UHGV virus genome: UHGV-1351772
Length of the DNA: 64,000 bases
Direction: 5' to 3' (one strand)
Source of the DNA: a virus
Part shown: piece by piece, positions 33,214-53,575 of the stretch
Layout of the letters: every line of letters begins with the position of its first letter
How positions within the stretch are numbered: the first letter of the stretch is position 1
The notes under the pieces: model-generated
What the model saw: only the letters and a program-made list of their open reading frames with translations
The model's database searches: none
Told to the model about the DNA's origin: nothing
Translations under genes and position numbers: made by a program

Positions 33214-33717
33214 TCACTCCTTAGAAGACGTTAACGTCTTTATGATCTCCTGTCGAAAACTGTTCGCATTTAAATTGCCAACAGGTCTCGCCGAAGCCTC
33301 TTTACGTTGTTCTGGTGTTGAAGCTGGATTAACAGGAGTTTCTGGTTTTGTCGAAGACAGATCCTTCGCCGTACCGCTCGCTTTCGATGAATTAAACGTG
33401 CTTTCATATGGCGGTTTCTGGCCGAGGCAAACGAAGAGCCTGTCGTATAACTTCCCATTATCTTCTTTTAGTTTATCTCGATCTTGTTTCATCTCTTGGT
33501 AAGACTGCGACATATACGTGTCATGAGACTGCACTGCAACGAGCGCGTGAAACTGTTGTACATAGGCGTAGGAGACGAAGCCAGAATACGACAACAAGAT
33601 CGTGATGATTAAAGTCATTATCTTGCTTGCTCTTGATACGTTTTCTCCTTCTCCTGGTTTAAATGCTTCCATTAACATCTGAAGGAAGAACGGAAGCACT
33701 TTAAAAAATGAACCCAT
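33214..33717 (-). CDS. Membrane protein with N-terminal TM helix and periplasmic coiled-coil-like domain (i-spanin-like architecture)
   Basis: 167 aa; TM IMTLIITILLSYSGFVSYAYV; then QEMKQDRDKLKEDNGKLYDRL; GAGGTGA SD. Confidence 0.55.
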   Translation of the reverse strand: MGSFFKVLPFFLQMLMEAFKPGEGENVSRASKIMTLIITILLSYSGFVSYAYVQQFHALVAVQSHDTYMSQSYQEMKQDRDKLKEDNGKLYDRLFVCLGQKPPYESTFNSSKASGTAKDLSSTKPETPVNPASTPEQRKEASARPVGNLNANSFRQEIIKTLTSSKE

Positions 33718-33742
33718 TGCTCACCTCGGAGTATTTTTAATT

Positions 33743-41226: not shown

Positions 41227-41406
41227 CTAATTCCGCCATTCGCATTCGCGTTGACGCCAAATTGAACCCCACGATAGTTTAATCAGATAAGATGAAACTA
41301 CCCATAAAATCATCACCACACAAAACATGACATAAAGAACCGCTAGAATGGACATGAAGCCAAACCCTGCCGCATCCACAATATGACGGAACCAATCAGT
41401 TTGCAT
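41227..41406 (-). CDS. Small membrane peptide, 59 aa
   Basis: ATG 41406 (AAGGAG upstream); MQTDWFRHIVDAAGFGFMSILAVLYVMFCVVMILWVVSSYLIK...; overlaps stop of ATPase gene. Confidence 0.5.
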   Translation of the reverse strand: MQTDWFRHIVDAAGFGFMSILAVLYVMFCVVMILWVVSSYLIKLSWGSIWRQRECEWRN

Positions 41407-43900
41407 AAACAATTTTTACTCCTTCGTTATACACCGCAGGCAATGTCACCCCTTCCGGTTCGATGACACAGTACGATGCTTCATTAAGTTTAGAATGAAC
41501 CTCGGCTTCGTGGGAGACTACCAACAGTTGAGAAAATTCTCCCGAGTTTGCTAACGTTTTAATAAAGCCGACCAGGTTGTTACGGTGCTCCTCATCCATG
41601 CCTTCCGAAGGCTCATCCAAAAGCAATGGAAACTGATGCAACTTCAGCGCTTTGTACGCAGTCAGCCTGAACATCAGATTAAATATCGCACGCTGCGCCT
41701 TAGACCCTTTACGCACGTCAGGAACAGGCTCAGGATGCGTTTTTAGCTGGACAGGAAAAGTATAATCCAAATCGCCGTCAGTGAGGTCACAAGGCATAAC
41801 GCGCATGGGGTACGTCCAGACCTGTTCGATATAACGCGTCATTAACTCTGTGATTCTAACGATAGCGTTGTAAAAATACTTTCTAAGTACACCCTTTTCT
41901 GGAGAGAAGGCTTGAATCATCAGTTTGTTATTGAACTGCTGGGCTTGTAAGTCAGCAAGTTCGCGTTCCAAACTGTTGAGCTGATTCAATTCATTTTCCA
42001 TCTGACGATAACGTTCGCGTGCGGTTGTAAAAGCATCCAGCTTCCCTTCTCGTGCACGTAAGAGTTCCTCGACGACCGTATTTGTCAACGTAACCTTAAC
42101 ATCACTCTCTAACCGTTCGAATAACGCACTGAAATCATCTACAGCACGTTTAACATTCACCAGATAGGTAAGTGTCGTGTTAGCCAGTTCGTGCTCTCTA
42201 CGACGCATTGAGAGCATTTCTGTGGCTTTACCTAATCGTGACTGTTGGAAAGCGATTTTCTGTTGTAAAGCACCATCGACGTTACCAACGGCCGCCACGG
42301 CATCCTGCCATTCTTTTTCCGCCTTCACTAACCGTTGTCGGGTTTCATGGTACTCAATAGCAGAGTACAACTCGCTGTCAAACGCTGCGCATAGACTCCC
42401 GAACTGTTCACGTGATTCTGTGAAAACGTTACGTTCTTGCAAACGCTTAAAGAACATGCTCAATACCGGGTCCTTTGAATACGTCAGTACAATCTCACGA
42501 ACCTGCCGCATATAAGTTACATCAGATTCTAATTCAACACGATCGCGTAATAAGGTCTCTAACTGCGTTTGCAGTTCCGTGCGCTGCTGTTGTTGTCCGC
42601 GAATCGAAGACTCAAGTTCAGGTAAAGAACGCGTAACACCAGGCCGAAACTTAAACCGACACTGCGGGCAATCCACTTCCGCTGTTTCTAAGTAGTGATT
42701 ACGTTCGTGATTTAAATTCTGTAAAACGTTCTCCACTCGCTGGAGTCTATCCCGCAACCCTGCGGTTTTTTGATCCATCACCAGAAGCCGTTCTTCCAAA
42801 ACATTGAGTTTTTCAGTTGAATGAATTGCGTCCAGTGTTGTTCCTAACCGTTGCCCCCAGACACGCGCATCGGTAGCCGCACGAAGTTGGTCTAAATTGA
42901 CGTTGTCGTTAAATAGACCCGGAAAGAGATGCTCGGTGTCCCATTTGGTAAGTAACTCACGTAAACGCGCCAATGTATTCTTGAGACCTTCGTGATTCCG
43001 CATCAGGTAGTCTTGTCGTGTCGATTCATCCATCAATAACGACAAGTCTTTATTCAACATCGATACCTCTGTTTCAGTAGACACGACAGCTTCGCGGGCC
43101 GTCGCTTCGTTTTGTCGCGCGGCCAGTATCTGTTCATCAGTAGGCAGTCCACCACGATGTTGTAATATTGCGTCGATGGTTGGGCCCAAGCTGTTTAATA
43201 ACGCTTGGATTGTTTCGATGGTGACGGCACGATTTAATCCTGGCAACTGTTCGATTTCTCGGTTCAGTTCACGTAAATCCGATTCCAAACCTTTTAATCT
43301 CGTCGCCAACTGCTGCCGTTCTTCCTCGTTCTCAATAACACGCGTCCGCAATTCGGCGATTTTACGGCTGGTGATTTCAATACCCCCATTTAAGGCAGTA
43401 AGGTTTTTACGTAAACGTTGATAAAACCCTAACGCGTAGGTGAGGTCAGAGGTACTTAAACGGTAAAACCACTTACGACGCAGTTCCGTTCCTGCATCCG
43501 TTAAAAGCACTTCTCCGTTCAGTAGTTCTTTAATCTCTTTTGTAATGCCTGTGATTTCTTCAACACGGGAGTTGTAGACTTTCGCATTACCTTGCTCGAC
43601 GATCTTTGCCCCCGTGGTCAAGTTCTCAATATCACAAACCAGTGAGTTCCCTTTACGGGCAACTTTGAATCGATAGCGTTGATCACCAACTAAACAGTAG
43701 TTCGTGTAAGAACCGCCGTCCCTGAATTCGGTTTTGGCCGGTGCTAAGGGTAAGAATACAGACAGTAGACTGGTTTTCCCGCAACCGTTTCCACCCAGGA
43801 TAATTGTTGTTGGGGACTGGATAGTGAAATCGAATGTTTCAATTTCATGTAACCCCATCCCCGTAAAACCTTTGAGTATAATGCGTTCAACTTTTAGCAT
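41396..43900 (-). CDS. SbcC/Rad50-like SMC-family ATPase with coiled coil and CxxC zinc hook
   Basis: Start moved to ATG 43900 (GGAGGTG SD). Walker A GGNGCGKTSLL, long coiled coil, hook EVDCPQCRF, signature-like SKAQR, Walker B LLLDEP, H-loop VVSHEAE. Confidence 0.75.
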   Translation of the reverse strand: MLKVERIILKGFTGMGLHEIETFDFTIQSPTTIILGGNGCGKTSLLSVFLPLAPAKTEFRDGGSYTNYCLVGDQRYRFKVARKGNSLVCDIENLTTGAKIVEQGNAKVYNSRVEEITGITKEIKELLNGEVLLTDAGTELRRKWFYRLSTSDLTYALGFYQRLRKNLTALNGGIEITSRKIAELRTRVIENEEERQQLATRLKGLESDLRELNREIEQLPGLNRAVTIETIQALLNSLGPTIDAILQHRGGLPTDEQILAARQNEATAREAVVSTETEVSMLNKDLSLLMDESTRQDYLMRNHEGLKNTLARLRELLTKWDTEHLFPGLFNDNVNLDQLRAATDARVWGQRLGTTLDAIHSTEKLNVLEERLLVMDQKTAGLRDRLQRVENVLQNLNHERNHYLETAEVDCPQCRFKFRPGVTRSLPELESSIRGQQQQRTELQTQLETLLRDRVELESDVTYMRQVREIVLTYSKDPVLSMFFKRLQERNVFTESREQFGSLCAAFDSELYSAIEYHETRQRLVKAEKEWQDAVAAVGNVDGALQQKIAFQQSRLGKATEMLSMRRREHELANTTLTYLVNVKRAVDDFSALFERLESDVKVTLTNTVVEELLRAREGKLDAFTTARERYRQMENELNQLNSLERELADLQAQQFNNKLMIQAFSPEKGVLRKYFYNAIVRITELMTRYIEQVWTYPMRVMPCDLTDGDLDYTFPVQLKTHPEPVPDVRKGSKAQRAIFNLMFRLTAYKALKLHQFPLLLDEPSEGMDEEHRNNLVGFIKTLANSGEFSQLLVVSHEAEVHSKLNEASYCVIEPEGVTLPAVYNEGVKIVYAN

Positions 43901-43927
43901 ACCCACCTCCATAAAGACGGAGTGTGG

Positions 43928-43973
43928 TGTAAAAAGAAAAAAATAAAGAAAGGGAGAACCCGAAGGTTCTCCC
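43928..43973 (-). terminator. Strong rho-independent terminator (minus strand) upstream of ATPase gene
   Basis: GGGAGAACC-CGAA-GGTTCTCCC hairpin followed on minus strand by UUUCUUUAUUUUUUUCUUUUU. Confidence 0.75.
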
Positions 43974-43978
43974 AAACG

Positions 43979-45186: not shown

Positions 45187-45576
45187 TCAATGATCTAATT
45201 CAATAGCACCAGCCATCTTGCCCCGTTCTTCGATAACAATCAGATAACGGTCGCGAGATTTGCTTTTAGCGAGAGTTAAGACAACAGTAGGGTCGCATGT
45301 TTTCGTGGTGATAGGAAGAACCTCTCTTTCGACGGAATCGAGCAGAAAGTAATAACCTGCGGGACACATTGTGCCACCGTCAGCTTTTACCAGAATATAG
45401 CGCCCGTCTGCGCCGACTTCTTGGCAGATTGTTTCACCGACTTCGCAAACTTCAAACCCCGGAGGATTGTACTGATAATCGGTATTGTTGTTTGGGGTTA
45501 GCAGTAAATCGTTAACTTGAGTAGATGCTGCTACACTCAGGGAGAAGAAGAATGCTAAAACGCAGACGAGACGCAT
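45187..45576 (-). CDS. Small secreted Cys-containing protein 1 (signal peptide)
   Basis: MRLVCVLAFFFSLSVAAS signal; CEVGETICQEVGADGRYILVKADGGTMC; AAGGAG SD. Confidence 0.65.
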   Translation of the reverse strand: MRLVCVLAFFFSLSVAASTQVNDLLLTPNNNTDYQYNPPGFEVCEVGETICQEVGADGRYILVKADGGTMCPAGYYFLLDSVEREVLPITTKTCDPTVVLTLAKSKSRDRYLIVIEERGKMAGAIELDH

Positions 45577-45586
45577 GAGTTACTCC

Positions 45587-45997
45587 TTAAATTTTAAGTT
45601 TATCCATAGCTACAACGATAGGTTTTTCCGAAGTGTCTAATATCCCTACCATTGGCACACCATCTACGACTTCGAAGAATGGTTTGTTATTACCAGAGCA
45701 TAGACGTTTGTCGTTGTATTCGAGACGTTGGGCCTTCCACGTTTCGAGGTTGAGTACAGACATTGGGCTGTCGTAGCACCAGGCACCACCTTGCTCAACG
45801 ATGAATACGTATCTGCTACCTTTGTATTTAAACAGACTCTTCGCCTGACAGTACAACCCGTCAATTTCCGTACAATAGAAATCATCGGTGCTATTGACGT
45901 ACTTAATATTGTCTGGCAACTGTATTGTCTTTGCTGTAGCGTTGACAGAGAACAGAACAGCCATTGCAATGAGAAGAGTATTAATGATAGTTTTCAT
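45587..45997 (-). CDS. Small secreted Cys-containing protein 2 (paralog of protein 1)
   Basis: MKTIINTLLIAMAVLFSVNATA signal; CTEIDGLYCQAKSLFKYKGSRYVFIVEQGGAWC. Confidence 0.65.
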   Translation of the reverse strand: MKTIINTLLIAMAVLFSVNATAKTIQLPDNIKYVNSTDDFYCTEIDGLYCQAKSLFKYKGSRYVFIVEQGGAWCYDSPMSVLNLETWKAQRLEYNDKRLCSGNNKPFFEVVDGVPMVGILDTSEKPIVVAMDKLKI

Positions 45998-46008: not shown

Positions 46009-46494
46009 TTAGTATTTAGATTGTTCTACGTACTTCTTAACCAGGTAAGCGAATTCGGCAACACCGATATCACCGAACCAAATCAGGTAACCGGGGTCGA
46101 TGTTGTAGTAATAACCGACGAGTTTCTTGGTGTGTGGGTTGTATAGCGTTACGATGTATTCCCAACCACAAGCGTTAGCTTTACAACCACCGCTTTCAAT
46201 CCAGATTTTGTTGTTGATGTTTACCGGATACATGTTACCGCCAGGGCCATCCATGTAACCTTTAGAGCCGAACATACCATCCAGTCCCACAGGGTCTAGT
46301 GTTTTATCAACAACGGCTTTAAACGACTTATCGGTATCGTACAAGTCGTTGATGTTTGGGCACGCATTTGGCTGACCTTCCCAAGCGTTTCCATCACAGG
46401 TAAGCAATTCGTCTGCGGAGGCCGCATCTACAGTTGGTGTGACACCGATAAACAAGAAAACCAGAAAGAACATCAGTGCATGTAAACGTTTCAT
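46009..46494 (-). CDS. Small secreted Cys-containing protein 3
   Basis: MKRLHALMFFLVFLFIGVTPTVDAAS signal; six Cys in mature part; AAAGGAG SD. Confidence 0.65.
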   Translation of the reverse strand: MKRLHALMFFLVFLFIGVTPTVDAASADELLTCDGNAWEGQPNACPNINDLYDTDKSFKAVVDKTLDPVGLDGMFGSKGYMDGPGGNMYPVNINNKIWIESGGCKANACGWEYIVTLYNPHTKKLVGYYYNIDPGYLIWFGDIGVAEFAYLVKKYVEQSKY

Positions 46495-46512: not shown

Positions 46513-46905
46513 TTATTCAGCAGGGCGATTCAAGGTAACACGTCCGATTAATTCGGCGTTGTGAAAGAAGTCCACAGCGGTATAGTTACCAACGGATAGC
46601 GGATGGATACTAACTGACATTACTTTTGGTTGTTCGCAGGCGATATCCGTCAGACGTTGGTAGACTTGCGCACGGGTGTCAGCAATGAGTAACCCCGTAC
46701 ACGCTTCACCACGCACTAAACGATAAACTTGCAGTTTACCGAAACTGCGCATTAACGTAGGCGTCTCATCCGGGTTGATAATCGGTGAGTCAGGAGCCGG
46801 TTCGTAATAGCGGACATCCGAATCACCGAAAGCATAAGTGCCAGTAATTCCGACCGCACAGAAAATAATGATGGTATAAAGTATAGTTCTGATATTCATT
46901 TTCAC
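46513..46905 (-). CDS. Small secreted protein 4
   Basis: M(K)MNIRTILYTIIIFCAVGITGTYA signal; start GTG 46905 or ATG 46899. Confidence 0.55.
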   Translation of the reverse strand: MKMNIRTILYTIIIFCAVGITGTYAFGDSDVRYYEPAPDSPIINPDETPTLMRSFGKLQVYRLVRGEACTGLLIADTRAQVYQRLTDIACEQPKVMSVSIHPLSVGNYTAVDFFHNAELIGRVTLNRPAE

Positions 46906-46927: not shown

Positions 46928-47389
46928 TTATTTGTTAGGACGGGTGTGTCCACAGTTCTGGAAGAAAGTTTCAGACAGACGTTCGCCTTCTACGGTAAAG
47001 TTAGCGGTGTCGTTACCATTGATACTCACACTGAAAGTTTTGGCATTACCGATAGCATTAACGAAAGCAACCCAAGCGTGTTCTGCTTTGTCACTACCGT
47101 CCACGGTAGGGATGTTATAGGTCTTGCCGTTTACGACAATATCCAACGTGTTATCTTCCGCGTTAGTTGCACCTACGGGTTCACCGTAATACCAAACCAT
47201 GTGACCGTAAAATTTGCGATTCGCAGTTTCTGTGTCACAGTTGATAGACAGTCCGTTTCCGGCGGTGTCTTCAATTTCGTAAACTGCCTGGCCAGGGTTT
47301 TGTATTTGTTCCCAGCTGTTGATAGCGGCGTGTGCGCTATTGAGGCCGAAAGTTAAAATGGTTATTAAGAAAGTGATAAAGGTTTTCAT
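46928..47389 (-). CDS. Small secreted protein 5
   Basis: MKTFITFLITILTFGLNSAHA signal; AAGGAG SD. Confidence 0.65.
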   Translation of the reverse strand: MKTFITFLITILTFGLNSAHAAINSWEQIQNPGQAVYEIEDTAGNGLSINCDTETANRKFYGHMVWYYGEPVGATNAEDNTLDIVVNGKTYNIPTVDGSDKAEHAWVAFVNAIGNAKTFSVSINGNDTANFTVEGERLSETFFQNCGHTRPNK

Positions 47390-47435: not shown

Positions 47436-47807
47436 TTAAATAACTGTGTTGGGTAATGCTTTAATCTGTGTATAACTATCTCCGATACCTCTTATCATTT
47501 CCAGACGCTCTTCTGTAGAAAGGCTTTGGTTAATGTCTTTGTCAAGATTGAACAGTGTCAAGAGTTTTGCAATTGCAACCGTCAAGTTGTCGGACAGCTC
47601 GTTGTTTTTACGCCATTCTTCGTTACGGAAAATAGAGATAAGGTCTTTCGCCTGGCCTTCAGCGTGCGGTTTGGCTAACTGCGCGTCACGCTGTTCGATA
47701 AGGTATGCTTCGTTAGTAAGTAAACGTTTCAGGTTTTCTGGGTTAGTGGCAGCGCGAGTAACGATCATTAATACAACAAACGGGTCTTTAAATAATTCGT
47801 TTTTCAT
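47436..47807 (-). CDS. Hypothetical protein, 123 aa
   Basis: ATG 47807 with AGGAG SD; conserved hairpin plus 21-mer module upstream. Confidence 0.6.
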   Translation of the reverse strand: MKNELFKDPFVVLMIVTRAATNPENLKRLLTNEAYLIEQRDAQLAKPHAEGQAKDLISIFRNEEWRKNNELSDNLTVAIAKLLTLFNLDKDINQSLSTEERLEMIRGIGDSYTQIKALPNTVI

Positions 47808-47896: not shown

Positions 47897-47932
47897 CGAA
47901 CAAAAAATAAAAGGTGGGGGTAAACCCCCACC
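47897..47932 (-). terminator. Rho-independent terminator (minus strand)
   Basis: GGTGGGGG-TAAA-CCCCCACC hairpin with U-run on minus strand. Confidence 0.7.
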
Positions 47933-47936
47933 GATG

Positions 47937-48515
47937 TTATACATCGAACCGGTACTGCCGGGAGTTAATGAGGAACTCGGTATTCAGCTCAATCCATTCG
48001 AGTAAATCGCCCAACGGTAATCGGTTTGGGTTTTCTAACTCAATAGACGCTACCGGATAAGAGTTTACTAATTCCGTAATTGCCTCAATACCCTCTTGCG
48101 TTCCATCGTCTTCTAAGGTGATTGTAAACGGCATATCGGTACGATCCGCATTAGGATTGTACAAACTGACTTTCGTTGCTTGGACAAACGCAGTCAGGTC
48201 GTCACGTATAATGCGTGTATCAGGCGCTAGAACTACCCAGAGATGTTGTCCAGGCTGGAGTTTACGTTTTGCGTAGTTTAAGAACGGATTAGCCGGTAAG
48301 CTTTCCAAACCACTGCAAATGTTCCGTAAATGAATACCTCGTGGGTCTTTATAGTCCACGCTGAAGATTCCTACCGGTTCCTTCGCTGCCTGTTTTATCA
48401 GAAAGACCAATACCGTGTCCGCTCTTTCTGGTAAGGAAAGCTCTATTCCCTCAAGCTCCCCATCGACGAGGTTTTCCAACCAAACGTCTTTTCGCATTTC
48501 TATTAATCGGTACAC
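47937..48515 (-). CDS. Hypothetical protein, 192 aa
   Basis: GTG 48515 with GAGGTGG SD. Confidence 0.55.
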   Translation of the reverse strand: MYRLIEMRKDVWLENLVDGELEGIELSLPERADTVLVFLIKQAAKEPVGIFSVDYKDPRGIHLRNICSGLESLPANPFLNYAKRKLQPGQHLWVVLAPDTRIIRDDLTAFVQATKVSLYNPNADRTDMPFTITLEDDGTQEGIEAITELVNSYPVASIELENPNRLPLGDLLEWIELNTEFLINSRQYRFDV

Positions 48516-48527
48516 GGTACCACCTCA

Positions 48528-49301
48528 CTATTGATTAAGTTTTACATCGGCAATAAACAGCAATTGTTTACCATGTTGCTGCACTTCTTTCCAACCCAGT
48601 TTCATAGCAGCGTCAACAACATCTAACATGCTGTAACGGGACATCAACGCGGTTGATTTTGTTCCTGACATTAAATAAAGTGGCTCATTAGGGCAACGGT
48701 CTCGAGCATCAGGAAGTTCTCGAATAACCACTGAGCCTTCGGGTACGGTAACAACATGAATCACGGTAAATGGTCTCTTGTGTGTTAAGTAGATACGGAA
48801 CCCAACGTGTTCAGATTCATGAAAGATTTTCTTCACGACCACATCTTTCAGTGTCGTCTGAACATCAGCCCCAGGTAATATCGTGGTTTCACGTGAAACG
48901 AAGCAACGACTATTTTCAATCGTGGAGAAATAATTACGTATCGGCAAACTGGCGTTATGATCGCGCAGTTTTTTGCTCAGTAGATCGAAGTTCAGTTCTT
49001 TAACTTTTTCTAACCACTCTTTGGCTTGTTGAATGTAATAACTACCGACAGCGCGATAAGTTAATACCTTACCTGTGCTCACTTGCCAAAGCTTGATGCT
49101 TAGTGAATTTGGCTTATAGCGACGATACTCACCCCGCGTATGGTTGATGCGCTCGTAACGCTCTACATCATCAACGGGTGCAGATTCGACCGATTGTAAT
49201 TGCAGCGTACGATCTAATCTATCGGCAAATAGTAGTGATGTTAGCGAACCTTCGATCATATACGGTTCGGTTTTAAAGATATCGTCTAAATGGACTTTCA
49301 T
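48528..49301 (-). CDS. Paralog family member 1 (C-terminal GW..V...G.QLLF motif)
   Basis: 257 aa; ends KLGWKEVQQHGKQLLFIADVKLNQ; N-terminus MKVHLDDIF similar to member 4 MRELLDDIF. Confidence 0.65.
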   Translation of the reverse strand: MKVHLDDIFKTEPYMIEGSLTSLLFADRLDRTLQLQSVESAPVDDVERYERINHTRGEYRRYKPNSLSIKLWQVSTGKVLTYRAVGSYYIQQAKEWLEKVKELNFDLLSKKLRDHNASLPIRNYFSTIENSRCFVSRETTILPGADVQTTLKDVVVKKIFHESEHVGFRIYLTHKRPFTVIHVVTVPEGSVVIRELPDARDRCPNEPLYLMSGTKSTALMSRYSMLDVVDAAMKLGWKEVQQHGKQLLFIADVKLNQ

Positions 49302-49309
49302 TTCTATTT

Positions 49310-49342
49310 CCTTCTTAACAAAAGCCGCGACTAAAGCGCGGC
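49310..49342 (-). terminator. Hairpin terminator (minus strand)
   Basis: GCCGCG-ACTAAA-CGCGGC hairpin plus U-rich tract on minus strand. Confidence 0.5.
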
Positions 49343-49368
49343 AGTTAGAGAAAGTGTAGTTTCACTTA

Positions 49369-50520
49369 TTAAATGTTGGCAACAAACAACAGTTGGCTGC
49401 CGTATTTTTGCACGTCAGCCCAACCGTAGTCTTTCCCGATTATAGGTAGATGTAAAGCATCCAGCTTCTCGTCTTTCGCCTTCAGTTTCGCCACTAACGC
49501 ATTGGACTCCTCAGCACCGAGCAGTAATGCGGGTTCTTTTTCAGTACGTCCTTCTGCGGTCGGGAAGAAATCGTAATAGCTGCGAGTAGGTAAATCGACA
49601 GAAAAACTACGATTGCCTATTGTGATGAAGAACGCAACTCCTTCACAGTTAACATCTACACTACACGACCACCCCGCCTCTGTTAAAAGGTCTTTTAACA
49701 GACACCACACTTTAAGTTGGTTCTTAGAAAGTGTACGGTAGATAGCAAGATGGTCAGGAAGTAAATGCACCGCCATAATCATGTTTTCACATTTCTCGTC
49801 AAGCAACCTTGGATGTTGAATCGGGAACAATAATTCACTGATACCCACGTTATCAATTTTGTTAACAAAATCAGTTAATTCATCTTTTAAGGTACGCACG
49901 GATTTTTCTCCTTCGACTTCAATAATCTGGTGGGGTTCGCCGCTAATTAAAATGTGGTAAACGATGTCGTCGGTAGAACGGTAAGTGAGTTTGATAGCTT
50001 TATCACTTAACATTTCGTAGCGGAAGAAACTTTCGTACCAAGTTGACCCGAAATCGTTTCGTGTAAGTTCCTGCTCAACTTTGATGGTTTTTGCTTCAAA
50101 GCCGATTAACCCGCTTAATAACGCGAGTTCTGGTTTAGTTAAAATGCCCGCACCGTGAAAGGGCACTTTCTCAAGCTGAAAACATAAATTACTGACTTTA
50201 CCACTTGGGAAGACCTTAAACATAATCTTCCGGCTGCTACTCTTTTCCCTAACAACGAGTTTACGGTAATTTAGTCCACAATTTGTGTAAACCGCGAACT
50301 TGTAACCTTCAATTTCTTCATCGTAAGTACAGACATCGACAGGTGCGATAATCTCATTGTATTCAGTAAGTACACAGCAGCCCAAGTTATAACCAAACAA
50401 CTCACGTTGTAATGAAGACTCGATGGTTAAGCTTGGTAGTGACCAAACCCGATTATAGCATCTGTCCATCAGTTCTTTTAGGATCTTGGCATGTCCTGGT
50501 TTAGAAATAATATTACGCAT
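49369..50520 (-). CDS. Paralog family member 2
   Basis: 383 aa; ends KDYGWADVQKYGSQLLFVANI; AAAGGAG SD. Confidence 0.65.
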   Translation of the reverse strand: MRNIISKPGHAKILKELMDRCYNRVWSLPSLTIESSLQRELFGYNLGCCVLTEYNEIIAPVDVCTYDEEIEGYKFAVYTNCGLNYRKLVVREKSSSRKIMFKVFPSGKVSNLCFQLEKVPFHGAGILTKPELALLSGLIGFEAKTIKVEQELTRNDFGSTWYESFFRYEMLSDKAIKLTYRSTDDIVYHILISGEPHQIIEVEGEKSVRTLKDELTDFVNKIDNVGISELLFPIQHPRLLDEKCENMIMAVHLLPDHLAIYRTLSKNQLKVWCLLKDLLTEAGWSCSVDVNCEGVAFFITIGNRSFSVDLPTRSYYDFFPTAEGRTEKEPALLLGAEESNALVAKLKAKDEKLDALHLPIIGKDYGWADVQKYGSQLLFVANI

Positions 50521-50550
50521 TTTTACTCTCCTTTAGTGTTTTTTCGTTAC

Positions 50551-51105
50551 TTAAGCAGGGTAAGCTAAGAACAACAGCTGCTGGCCGATTTTACGTACGG
50601 TATACCAACCGTGGGCTTTAGCGACCGCGATCAACGTTTCCCAGTCGTCAACATCGCACTGTTCATTCCGAAGTCTTGTAAAGAGTGCCTCGGCTTCGCT
50701 TTGGTTTAATAACTTACCTGGGTTGTCTGGGGTGCAGTCAGTAGGGGTTGGAAAGAAAGTATACTGACGCGCTAGGAGAAAATCGACCAGATACTTGGTA
50801 TTTTCTTTATAAACCAGCGTGGAAGACTTTCCTTCGTGGAAGAAGCTGCCTGTTTTCCAAGCGCTATCCCCCAGTAAGCTCTGAAGGTAATCTGTAAAGC
50901 CCGTTCTGAAAGGGATATGGTTTTTACGTGTGATGTTACGACGCAGCGGGGTTTCCTCTACAGCTTGTACACTTACCCCTACTATCATCGCACCTGGCTG
51001 AATAATGCTATTGGTCAGTACGGTATAAGGACGGACAAAGAAATGTTCGCCTACGCCCTTTTCAAGGGTTTGGATAATTTCATTTTTCAGTTCAGTTTGA
51101 AACAT
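50551..51105 (-). CDS. Paralog family member 3
   Basis: 184 aa; ends KAHGWYTVRKIGQQLLFLAYPA. Confidence 0.65.
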   Translation of the reverse strand: MFQTELKNEIIQTLEKGVGEHFFVRPYTVLTNSIIQPGAMIVGVSVQAVEETPLRRNITRKNHIPFRTGFTDYLQSLLGDSAWKTGSFFHEGKSSTLVYKENTKYLVDFLLARQYTFFPTPTDCTPDNPGKLLNQSEAEALFTRLRNEQCDVDDWETLIAVAKAHGWYTVRKIGQQLLFLAYPA

Positions 51106-51136
51106 GGTATATTCTCCTTTTTTTCGGTTTTCTTAA

Positions 51137-51874
51137 TTACGCAGTTTTAATTAACAGCAGATAGTCCTTCGTAATCTCAGCACAACTCCACCCTCTCATC
51201 GTGGCGATTTTACGAAGATCAATTTTCTCGTGATATTTCAATAAGGGATCGTCCGGGTTAATTTCAACCAGGTGTGTGGCTTTAGAAATCGTTTCCACAT
51301 CTGGGATCTGTTTTGCTAAGTCGGATGCAATCAGTTCAATAACGCGGTATCCCTTTAACACAGAAACATAGATGCGCAAGCCATATAGCGTGCCCTCGTC
51401 TTCTAATGGACAAAGATCGATGCCGGGTCCAAGCAGTGATAACTCGACGTTATCGGGAAGGTTTTCTGCATTTCGGAGTAACCCTATCCCATTTCTAAAC
51501 AGAGGGAAGTAAGAGAATAGTGGTGGTAAAGGCCAACCGTTCCCAATAAGCACATCATCGATACTAGTAGGCGTGTTCGCAAGAAGACGAATGTGGTCAG
51601 CCACAACTTCAAGTTCGGCATCACTGATCAACTTATAGATTAACATGACGCTGGTTTCGGTATTAAAAACAAAGAAGACGCGGTTGGCGTAACTACCTAT
51701 CACGTATTCGTCAATCAAGCAGTCGATAACGTCACTGTCTGGATAATCTTCAGGTTTAATTGTTCCAGCATCGATTAACTTAGCAGGTTGCGATTGTTTT
51801 ATTAGTTCGTTAACCACCGTAGAAGAAAGTTCTAAACTGGTATTGGTAAAGATATCGTCTAATAATTCTCTCAT
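51137..51874 (-). CDS. Paralog family member 4
   Basis: 245 aa; ends TMRGWSCAEITKDYLLLIKTA; first gene leftward of the divergent regulatory region. Confidence 0.6.
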   Translation of the reverse strand: MRELLDDIFTNTSLELSSTVVNELIKQSQPAKLIDAGTIKPEDYPDSDVIDCLIDEYVIGSYANRVFFVFNTETSVMLIYKLISDAELEVVADHIRLLANTPTSIDDVLIGNGWPLPPLFSYFPLFRNGIGLLRNAENLPDNVELSLLGPGIDLCPLEDEGTLYGLRIYVSVLKGYRVIELIASDLAKQIPDVETISKATHLVEINPDDPLLKYHEKIDLRKIATMRGWSCAEITKDYLLLIKTA

Positions 51875-51968
51875 GATTTACTCGCTAATCCCAATGAAGG
51901 GAAGGCTATTATTATGGATTGTAAAAGAGGTATAAGGAAGTCACTACGTTCCTCTGGGAAGAGTATGT

Positions 51969-52035
51969 CGGTATACTCCGTATACCTCCGCTATTTATAT
52001 CCGTATACATAATGCCCCTACCCCTACCGGTATCC
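51969..52035. repeat. Iterated palindromic GTATAC-core elements (c[cg]GTATAC x3 plus ccGGTATCC) in divergent intergenic region
   Basis: cgGTATACtccGTATACctccgctatttatatccGTATACat...ccGGTATCC; GTATAC is self-complementary. Confidence 0.5.
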
Positions 52036-52113
52036 CGAGTAGCAGAATAAAGGGTCATAATGTAATTTTTTAGTAACCTTTAACGAAAGGTACTAAAAGG
52101 GTAACGTGTCCGT

Positions 52114-52167
52114 AGGGACTGAACTGGTACTTCAGTCCCTATTCACTTAAGTAAAATATATCTGAAA
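52114..52167 (+). promoter_or_regulatory. Hairpin (AGGGACTGAA...TTCAGTCCCT) followed by conserved 21-mer TAAGTAAAATATATCTGAAAT, upstream of plus-strand tail module
   Basis: 21-mer ends 27 nt before ATG 52194; near-identical copy at 47861. Confidence 0.5.
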
Positions 52168-52193
52168 TCAATTCCGATCTAAGGAACGTCCCG

Positions 52194-53297: not shown

Positions 53298-53365
53298 CTA
53301 TCTTATGCTTCGGTTGTAACACACGTCGGTCTTAGACCACCTTCCTTTTGAAATGGAGAGCTGTT

Positions 53366-53575
53366 ATGTCTATTAAAGAGTTCTCTTCTGCTGAGCATAT
53401 TCCAGAAGAGTTTAAGAAAATCGGTAACGTTAGCGCTTTCGGCGACACCGTTGATCATGTAACGGGTAAGCTGGCTGCTGAAGCTGAAAAAATTGGCGGC
53501 GACGCATTCAAAGTTATCGGTATTTCCGGCAACAACAAACTGCACGGTAACGCAATTGTCTACAAAAAAGACTAA
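53366..53575 (+). CDS. DUF1471 (YdgH/BhsA/McbA-family) domain protein without signal peptide, 69 aa
   Basis: Start at ATG 53366 (GGAGAG SD). KKIGNVSAFGDTVDHVTGKLAAEAEKIGGDAFKVIGISGNNKLHGNAIVYK closely parallels E. coli BhsA QKVGTISANAGTNLGSLEEQLAQKADEMGAKSFRITSVTGPNTLHGTAVIYK (from memory). Confidence 0.7.
   Translation: MSIKEFSSAEHIPEEFKKIGNVSAFGDTVDHVTGKLAAEAEKIGGDAFKVIGISGNNKLHGNAIVYKKD

Follow-up and report, generated by a model that had tools for sequence, protein, structure and literature searches.

The diversifying multi-copy accessory families of viruses, whose members share a single module, probably have a further example in the virus genome UHGV-1351772, of which a stretch of 64,000 nucleotides (nt), referred to here as the window, was analysed. 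Four adjacent minus-strand open reading frames (ORFs) at positions 48528-51874, encoding proteins of 257, 383, 184 and 245 amino acids (aa) and named g257, g383, g184 and g245 after these lengths, make up a tandem array; three of the proteins end in a conserved domain of ~70 aa, and the fourth is likely a diverged member of the same family. The domain represents a new, phage-restricted and previously undescribed family. The interpretation that we tentatively prefer is that the array encodes a tandem, fast-diversifying family of soluble, non-virion accessory proteins, in which specificity would reside in the variable part, the domain serving to bind a partner that all members have in common. 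An earlier sequence-only reading of the window had singled out these four genes for a C-terminal motif that they were said to share; the genes, their lengths and their boundaries were confirmed, and the C-terminal strings quoted from them are exact in all four.

Alignment and hidden Markov model (HMM) building, which had been proposed as the check on this motif, place the C-terminal similarity of g257, g383 and g184 far beyond chance. Pairwise blastp among these three proteins gives 30-50 bits across 63-108 residues, and their profile-profile probabilities are 79-97%. When the 629 six-frame ORFs of the window were searched with an HMM of the C-terminal region, it matched these three proteins only (E 1e-30 to 1e-36), and their hhalign probabilities against the domain profile are 99.0-99.6% (Table 1). 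Independently built PHROG models (26772, 33648, 24489 and 18480) match the C-termini of g257 and g383; no PHROG model matched g184 or g245. The similarity between g184 and g383 extends over ~110 C-terminal residues (hhalign, residues 72-181 against 273-381, P=6e-11), and each also has, ~45 residues ahead of the C-terminal domain, a further partial match to the GW beta-hairpin; that of g383, for example AGWSCSVDVNCEGVAFFIT, has GWSC in common with the C-terminus of g245. The paralog domains are only ~30-37% identical to one another, with no sign of concerted evolution. In a search for the family elsewhere, no further domain copy was found among the 629 window ORFs, or outside the array in the complete 222-kb genome of a relative, and the family does occur in the related phages SPN3US, Phobos and Huxley.

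Two motifs characterise the domain, PDxxDR[ST]xNxPxxL[ML]S and GWxxVxxxGxQLLFxA. An exhaustive HMMER scan of 1.84 billion proteins, clustered at 50% identity, yielded 53 representatives, whose consensus reads PDxxDR[ST]xNxPxYLMS ... GWxxVxxxGxQLLF[IV]A; among them P, P, G, W and G are invariant and R, L, V and Q near-invariant. All the invariant residues, namely the two prolines of the first motif and the GW and G of the hairpin, are present in g257, g383 and g184. The giant SH3-repeat and Ig-repeat proteins that the exhaustive search also returned were repeat-driven and were discarded. An AlphaFold2 (AF2) model of the g257 domain, built from a 21-sequence alignment, is confident and compact (pLDDT 88, pTM 0.74), with an ordered N-terminal segment bearing the first motif followed by a beta-alpha-alpha-beta-beta arrangement (E26-29, H31-40, H43-52, E55-61, E64-69). 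Neither sequence profiles nor structural comparison gave a match above threshold among Pfam and PDB-characterised domains, a Foldseek search of the model against BFVD returned uncharacterised jumbo-phage proteins only, and every public copy of the domain is annotated "hypothetical".

The domain was found only in phages: in enterobacterial, Erwinia, Klebsiella and Shewanella jumbo phages and in metagenomic phages. Searches by tblastn, exhaustive HMMER and Foldseek gave no match in phiKZ, PhiPA3, 201phi2-1 or Goslar; the family therefore lies outside the Chimalliviridae core genome, and a role as a nucleus-specific signal is improbable. Standalone proteins of 70-135 aa make up about half of the representatives, some of them occurring as adjacent pairs (83+89 aa in the sequences L024/L025; 79+82 aa in L022), and in PhiEaH1 gp105 the domain is N-terminal. 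Because it exists as short standalone proteins, as tandem standalone pairs and in this N-terminal position, the domain is an autonomous unit with a function of its own, and its earlier description as a C-terminal "tag" proved too narrow for a family that includes independent proteins of 72-100 aa. Standalone copies lie in early or nucleotide-metabolism regions with Dam and N6/N4 methyltransferases, Bro-N, RNA ligase, NYN nuclease, DEAD helicase, glutaredoxin and deoxynucleoside kinase (dNK) genes. The standalone pairs, and the ATPase neighbourhoods described below, are at L023 5851-8231, L024 2496-5302, L022 134-784 and L024 5051-5584. An origin of standalone copies by splitting of the 279- and 280-aa genes that precede them was rejected, the upstream proteins being unrelated to each other and to the family. 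In two metagenomic phage contigs, L023 and L024, standalone copies lie one to two genes downstream of a ~406-aa AAA ATPase (PF00004); an AAA+ ATPase was considered as the partner of the domain and set aside, since none was found among the ten largest ORFs of the window and none is annotated in RefSeq for the 222-kb relative.

The fourth gene is a remoter case, and the claim of a motif common to all four genes, significant for the other three, would hold for it in a weaker form: g245 was not detected by HMMER even at E<10. Against the 53-member domain profile, hhalign aligned g245 in register at its extreme C-terminus with P=7.6e-4, compared with P=0.016 for the best-scoring of 19 window proteins used as controls; residues 184-242 aligned with the full domain of family members of 200-236 aa at P=0.0011, and across the domain profiles values ranged from P=7.6e-4 to 2e-3 (probability 12-25%), ahead of 19 of 19 controls. 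A collinear, end-to-end hhalign alignment joins residues 1-242 of g245 to residues 1-250 of g257 (P=6e-4), and the N-terminal LDDIF noted earlier in the first and fourth members occupies residues 5-9 of each. In its AF2 model (pLDDT 75), g245 has the same C-terminal beta-alpha-alpha-beta-beta order as the domain model (E200-204, H210-214, H220-226, E231-234, E238-242; pLDDT about 68-87 in these elements), and among the top matches of the full model in BFVD by Foldseek, 9 of 17 are jumbo-phage proteins that the domain model also matches. The protein retains GW and a DDP..L element, is without the G and Q of G.QLLF, and has a linker shorter by ~11 residues. Since four independent signals of weak to moderate strength (the hhalign scores, the end-to-end alignment with g257, the AF2 order and the Foldseek matches) agree, we count g245 as a member of the family with good though not full confidence, and from the alignment it is probably a full-length paralog of g257.

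What sort of locus this is can be judged from the divergence of the array among related phages. Genes flanking it are 86-94% identical at the protein level across the clade, whereas the N-terminal parts of g184, g383 and g245 are 32-58% identical and their last 70 aa 60-76%. The lowest identities, reached in some genomes, are 50-61% for g245, 42-46% for g184 and ~40% for g383; g257 is the most conserved member, at 80-96% aa identity across the clade. Three allele types of g383 (98%, ~71-73% and ~40% identity) and two allele classes of g184 (87-95% and 42-46%) were distinguished. One relative (L011) is 95-98% identical to the window in g184, g383 and g257 but 73% in g245, and another (L009) is 98% identical in g245 and 87% in g184 but 40% in g383: the alleles are discrete and reassort between genomes. 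In the DNA, nt identity drops below detection in N-terminal coding parts and is back at 79-89%, in every genome, at the domain-coding segments and the adjacent intergenic joints. The domain segment of g383 is 83-86% identical in every relative, its upstream codons being undetectable or 61-67% identical, and that of g184 is 79-89% identical in all relatives, its N-terminal coding part being undetectable by blastn in five of seven. Within g383 itself the sequence is mosaic, with at least two variable modules in addition to the conserved C-terminal domain; its first ~200 codons are 91-97% identical in nt sequence to those of some relatives, and codons ~210-310 only 61-67%.

Ratios of nonsynonymous to synonymous substitution (dN/dS, or omega; Nei-Gojobori) are 0.35-0.48, at unsaturated dS, for the N-terminal parts of g245 and g383, 0.15-0.25 for the C-terminal domains of the same two genes, and ~0.14 for g257, the structural flanks being at 0.03-0.06; every copy of the array genes is intact. 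Taken as a whole, this speaks for genes that are functional, evolve under relaxed or diversifying selection and exchange cassettes, as is typical of host-interaction loci. The pattern upholds the earlier proposal of a conserved C-terminal module carried on diversified N-termini; the further statement that the N-terminal domains are divergent is right as to their diversification and goes too far if taken to mean that all are unrelated, g257 and g245 resembling full-length paralogs and g383 and g184 having ~110 aa in common.

The phage from which the window derives is a jumbo phage, a distant relative of SPN3US and phiEaH2, and its clade, with genomes of ~220-227 kb, is abundant in Logan/ENA and in isolate assemblies of E. 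coli, Salmonella and Shigella, where it occurs in hundreds. Two relatives, NZ_CP173450.1 (L014-L018) and NZ_CP134650.1, were deposited as "plasmids", circular sequences of ~222 kb that RefSeq/PLSDB assign to E. coli and Enterobacter ludwigii. The clade matches the "Seoul-like" chimallin-encoding jumbo phages that have been reported to persist in bacterial isolates (bioRxiv 10.1101/2024.12.31.630880). The position of the locus is fixed: domain genes follow baseplate, DUF1471 and tail genes in SPN3US, Phobos, Huxley and eight relatives within the clade, and the gene order of the array is kept in all eight of these relatives. The number of copies at the locus varies, with one in SPN3US (gp175) and in Phobos (gp176), three in tandem in Huxley (gp185-187), and three plus the remote fourth in the window clade.

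SPN3US gp175 (SPN3US_0175, YP_009153469.1) is a true homolog, with the domain at its C-terminus (HMM E ~1e-21 to 1e-24) and the same map position, after genes for baseplate (gp173), DUF1471 (gp172) and a 420-aa tail protein (gp171); it differs from the array in being a single gene of 412 aa where there are four here, and its N-terminal region has no detectable similarity to theirs. The mentions of "gp175" found in the literature all refer to the phiKZ protease or the PhiPA3 RecA. The PHROG families 26772, 33648, 24489, 18480 and 21313 contain the same domain and are homologs with no described function. In Huxley (Machinavirus), gp185-gp187 are likewise three adjacent domain-bearing genes at the same locus; since they belong to another genus, tandem expansion is a recurrent event. 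The Huxley proteins differ in being shorter (201-235 aa) and unannotated, and their orthology to single members of the array is not resolvable. Gene-family expansion is common in the SPN3US lineage, where a 17-member paralog family of head proteins has been described (PMC5105663); that family, unlike the array, consists of virion components, and no search found similarity between the two. The main text of PMC5105663 does not name gp175 among virion or essential proteins, and the records of SPN3US gp175 and Phobos gp176 say hypothetical, while their neighbours are marked as virion structural proteins. From this annotation and the silence of that main text, the array proteins are probably non-virion. 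They have no signal peptide or transmembrane segment and are predicted to be soluble.

In the interpretation that we prefer, the conserved C-terminal domain would bind one conserved partner, a host or phage protein, and whatever activity is specific to a strain or a target would come from the variable N-terminal region. On this view the array would be a polymorphic host-interaction set, for host takeover or counter-defence, kept diverse by an arms race. Several points weigh against it. Non-virion status derives from annotation and from what the main text of PMC5105663 leaves unsaid; the membership of g245 depends on weak statistics (P ~1e-3) and a model of medium confidence; dN/dS, though raised, remains under 1 when taken over whole genes, so that some of the divergence could be due to relaxed constraint; and g257 shows fair conservation (80-96% identity, omega ~0.14), which means that an arms race does not involve all members. 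A more specific proposal, which we hold to be rather doubtful, is that the domain is a phage-specific docking module that tethers polymorphic, recombining effectors to one conserved hub of host or phage, the array being a counter-defence or host-range cassette locus and the standalone proteins minimal blockers of that hub. The hub could be, for example, a protease or unfoldase, the transcription or translation machinery, or a component of a defence system, and the family would be a prokaryotic-virus analogue, in persistent nucleus-forming jumbo phages, of the ankyrin (Ank)/PRANC families of poxviruses.

The poxvirus ankyrin/PRANC (F-box-like) host-range families are multi-copy and evolve by duplication and diversification; their N-terminal regions, which bind the targets, are variable, and a small docking domain at the C-terminus is conserved. 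The PRANC domain is not known to occur normally as a standalone protein. The likeness to the array would be one of architecture only (variable N-terminus, conserved C-terminal domain, several copies): no relation in sequence or fold was found, hosts and machinery are different, and the array domain also occurs alone. Another parallel may be drawn with the T4-type internal proteins IPI, IPII and IPIII, which have a common capsid-targeting sequence and a hyperplastic locus, and at least one of which (IPI*) is a counter-defence effector; their module is an N-terminal peptide of ~10 residues, cleaved by the prohead protease, and the proteins are packaged in the head. These too would resemble the array as polymorphic, fast-evolving accessory proteins with one short conserved module at a variable locus; they differ in that the module of the array is a folded C-terminal domain of ~70 aa and that the array proteins are not reported in virions.

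The main rival to a family of partner-binding proteins with variable specificity makes the domain the effector: small as it is, it would inhibit or modulate some conserved protein of the host or the phage, and the N-terminal regions would be accessories for regulation, stability or localisation that do not set specificity. We consider this possible with something like one chance in a handful or a little better. It would fit the standalone forms of 72-100 aa, which are common, conserved and duplicated in tandem on their own, and the presence among the most conserved residues of polar D, R, N and Q in the extended, confidently modelled N-terminal segment, as expected of an interaction surface. 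It leaves unexplained, however, the long intact N-terminal regions under purifying selection (omega 0.1-0.5), their cassette exchange, and why a genome should keep an identical inhibitor function three or four times over. The remaining readings are less likely. That the domain is a module for homo- or hetero-oligomerisation, through which paralogs would join by their C-terminal beta-hairpins into mixed complexes displaying different N-terminal regions, seems unlikely to us: tandem, co-transcribed paralogs in several genera, the pairing of standalone copies, the exposed edge strand that the invariant QLLF segment forms in the modelled three-stranded sheet, and the second partial GW-hairpin upstream in g383 and g184 would all suit it, yet the single copy at the syntenic locus of SPN3US and Phobos means that hetero-oligomers are no general mechanism, and the low identity of the paralog domains, with no concerted evolution, tells against it as well.

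Location raises the question whether the proteins serve the tail or baseplate as accessories, in receptor binding or fibre assembly, with a conserved end that docks on the virion and a variable end that tracks the diversity of the host surface. The array adjoins baseplate and tail genes, the SPN3US homologs of which (gp171 and gp173) are tail or baseplate proteins, and receptor-binding proteins typically exchange alleles in this mosaic, cassette-like way. We nonetheless judge this quite improbable, given that the array and the baseplate gene are transcribed in divergent directions, that SPN3US gp175 and Phobos gp176, unlike their neighbours, are neither annotated nor, in the main text cited above, reported as virion proteins, that standalone copies lie in replication and nucleotide-metabolism regions and not in tail modules, and that the annotated tail-fibre and receptor-recognising genes of a relative are ~40 kb from its array. 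More improbable still is that the domain is a sorting signal of nucleus-forming phages, directing cargo to the chimallin shell, the import machinery or the early infection vesicle. Most multi-domain members do come from chimallin-encoding or SPN3US-related phages (Seoulvirus, Erskinevirus, Machinavirus, Derbicusvirus), but the lack of any match in phiKZ, PhiPA3, 201phi2-1 and Goslar in the searches above speaks against it, as do the standalone copies on contigs with a Dam, Bro-N and helix-turn-helix (HTH) early-region context unlike that of a chimallivirus, and a standalone signal without cargo makes little sense.

For nucleus-forming jumbo phages, with their hundreds of unassigned genes, recognising the host-facing ones is the bottleneck for understanding host range, resistance to bacterial immunity and the newly reported persistence in bacterial isolates. 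The domain is small, well predicted and expressible alone for the identification of its partner, hundreds of sequenced relatives provide a natural allele series of the variable regions, and copy number varies naturally between genera (1, 3 and 4). Should the domain prove to dock on a conserved hub, a new family of phage-host interaction modules would be defined, and the two motifs would then serve as a search key for related effectors in other large phages.

Table 1. Features of the array and its surroundings in the window.
Feature	Position	Strand	Description and evidence
g257, member 1	48528..49301	-	257 aa; ORF, domain HMM E 1e-30, PHROG 26772/33648 C-terminal matches, orthologs
g383, member 2	49369..50520	-	383 aa; ORF, domain HMM E 4e-35
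g184, member 3	50551..51105	-	184 aa; ORF, domain HMM E 4e-36
g245, likely remote member 4	51137..51874	-	245 aa; ORF, hhalign to g257, AF2, Foldseek
g257 C-terminal domain	48531..48734	-	aa ~190-257, PDARDRCPNEPLYLMS ... GWKEVQQHGKQLLFIA; hhalign residues 190-257, probability 99.6%
g383 C-terminal domain	49372..49581	-	aa ~314-383; hhalign residues 314-384, probability 99.0%
g184 C-terminal domain	50554..50772	-	aa ~112-184; hhalign residues 112-181, probability 99.4%
g245 putative shortened C-terminal domain	51140..51325	-	aa ~184-245, end RGWSCAEITKDYLLLIKTA; hhalign, AF2
g192, neighbour, non-member	47937..48515	-	starts 12 nt after g257; 90-99% identical across clade
Terminator-like hairpin between g383 and g257	49324..49342	-	consensus scan, 6 G-C pairs and T-run
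Terminator-like hairpin after g192	47913..47932	-	consensus scan, 8-bp stem, 7 G-C pairs and T-run
Divergent intergenic region, g245 / baseplate gene	51875..52193	.	319 bp; sequence, repeats, inverted repeats

The array is compact, with intergenic gaps of 31, 30 and 67 nt; all four genes have a proper start, and the Shine-Dalgarno sequence is strong in three of them and weaker in g245. ORFs on the opposite strand are 50-77 aa long and were taken as non-coding, and no structured RNA was detected at the array on either strand. The hairpin between g383 and g257 would divide the array into a g245-g184-g383 unit and a g257-g192 unit, which is only suggestive, the number of sites in the terminator scan being no higher than expected by chance. 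The protein encoded by g192 has no similarity to the domain family in blastp and hhalign comparisons, and its SPN3US homolog is gp177; as a universal partner of the domain it was rejected, having homologs only in the Seoulvirus and Erskinevirus groups and not being directly adjacent in SPN3US.

The 319-bp intergenic region upstream of g245 also serves the divergently transcribed baseplate gene, which is of late type; the earlier suggestion that the array is likely expressed early was drawn from its position beside this region. The region contains several hairpins, three direct TC(C/G)GTATAC repeats, each with the palindrome GTATAC, and, just upstream of the baseplate gene, a perfect hairpin with an 11-bp stem; these repeats and this perfect hairpin (51968-52008 and 52113-52141) are possible operator or regulatory elements. 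The 8-mer of the repeat, CCGTATAC, is not enriched across the window. No shared promoter motif or promoter class could be assigned to the array, a sigma-70 scan giving matches at chance level; CCCCTAC elements, considered as promoters, turned out to be terminator stems, and the motif GATAGATATTAT, considered as the array promoter, is absent upstream of the array. Elsewhere in the clade, in NZ_CP173450.1, the motif GATAGATATTA[TC] lies 40-110 nt upstream of four start codons (genes 63926-64312, 83564-84574, 123694-125934 and 148860-149300), with a partial form, ATAGATATGA, ahead of 33248-33727; this motif may be a phage promoter class, and it does not occur ahead of the paralog array.

Downstream of the array, five consecutive small minus-strand genes (46928-47389, 46513-46905, 46009-46494, 45587-45997 and 45187-45576) encode proteins with signal-peptide-like hydrophobic N-termini, the one of 153 aa matching Pfam YfjT in relatives. 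Together with a DUF1471/BhsA-like gene at 53348-53575, they suggest a cluster of exported phage proteins. The 123-aa gene g123 (47436-47807, minus strand) is an insertion/deletion polymorphism: of the relatives compared, L011 alone has its DNA in common with the window. The leftward run of small genes is terminated by a minus-strand gene at 41396-43975 for an 859-aa SMC_N/AAA_15-like protein, which is syntenic with SMC-domain proteins of SPN3US (ACQ60_gp080) and Phobos (gp181).

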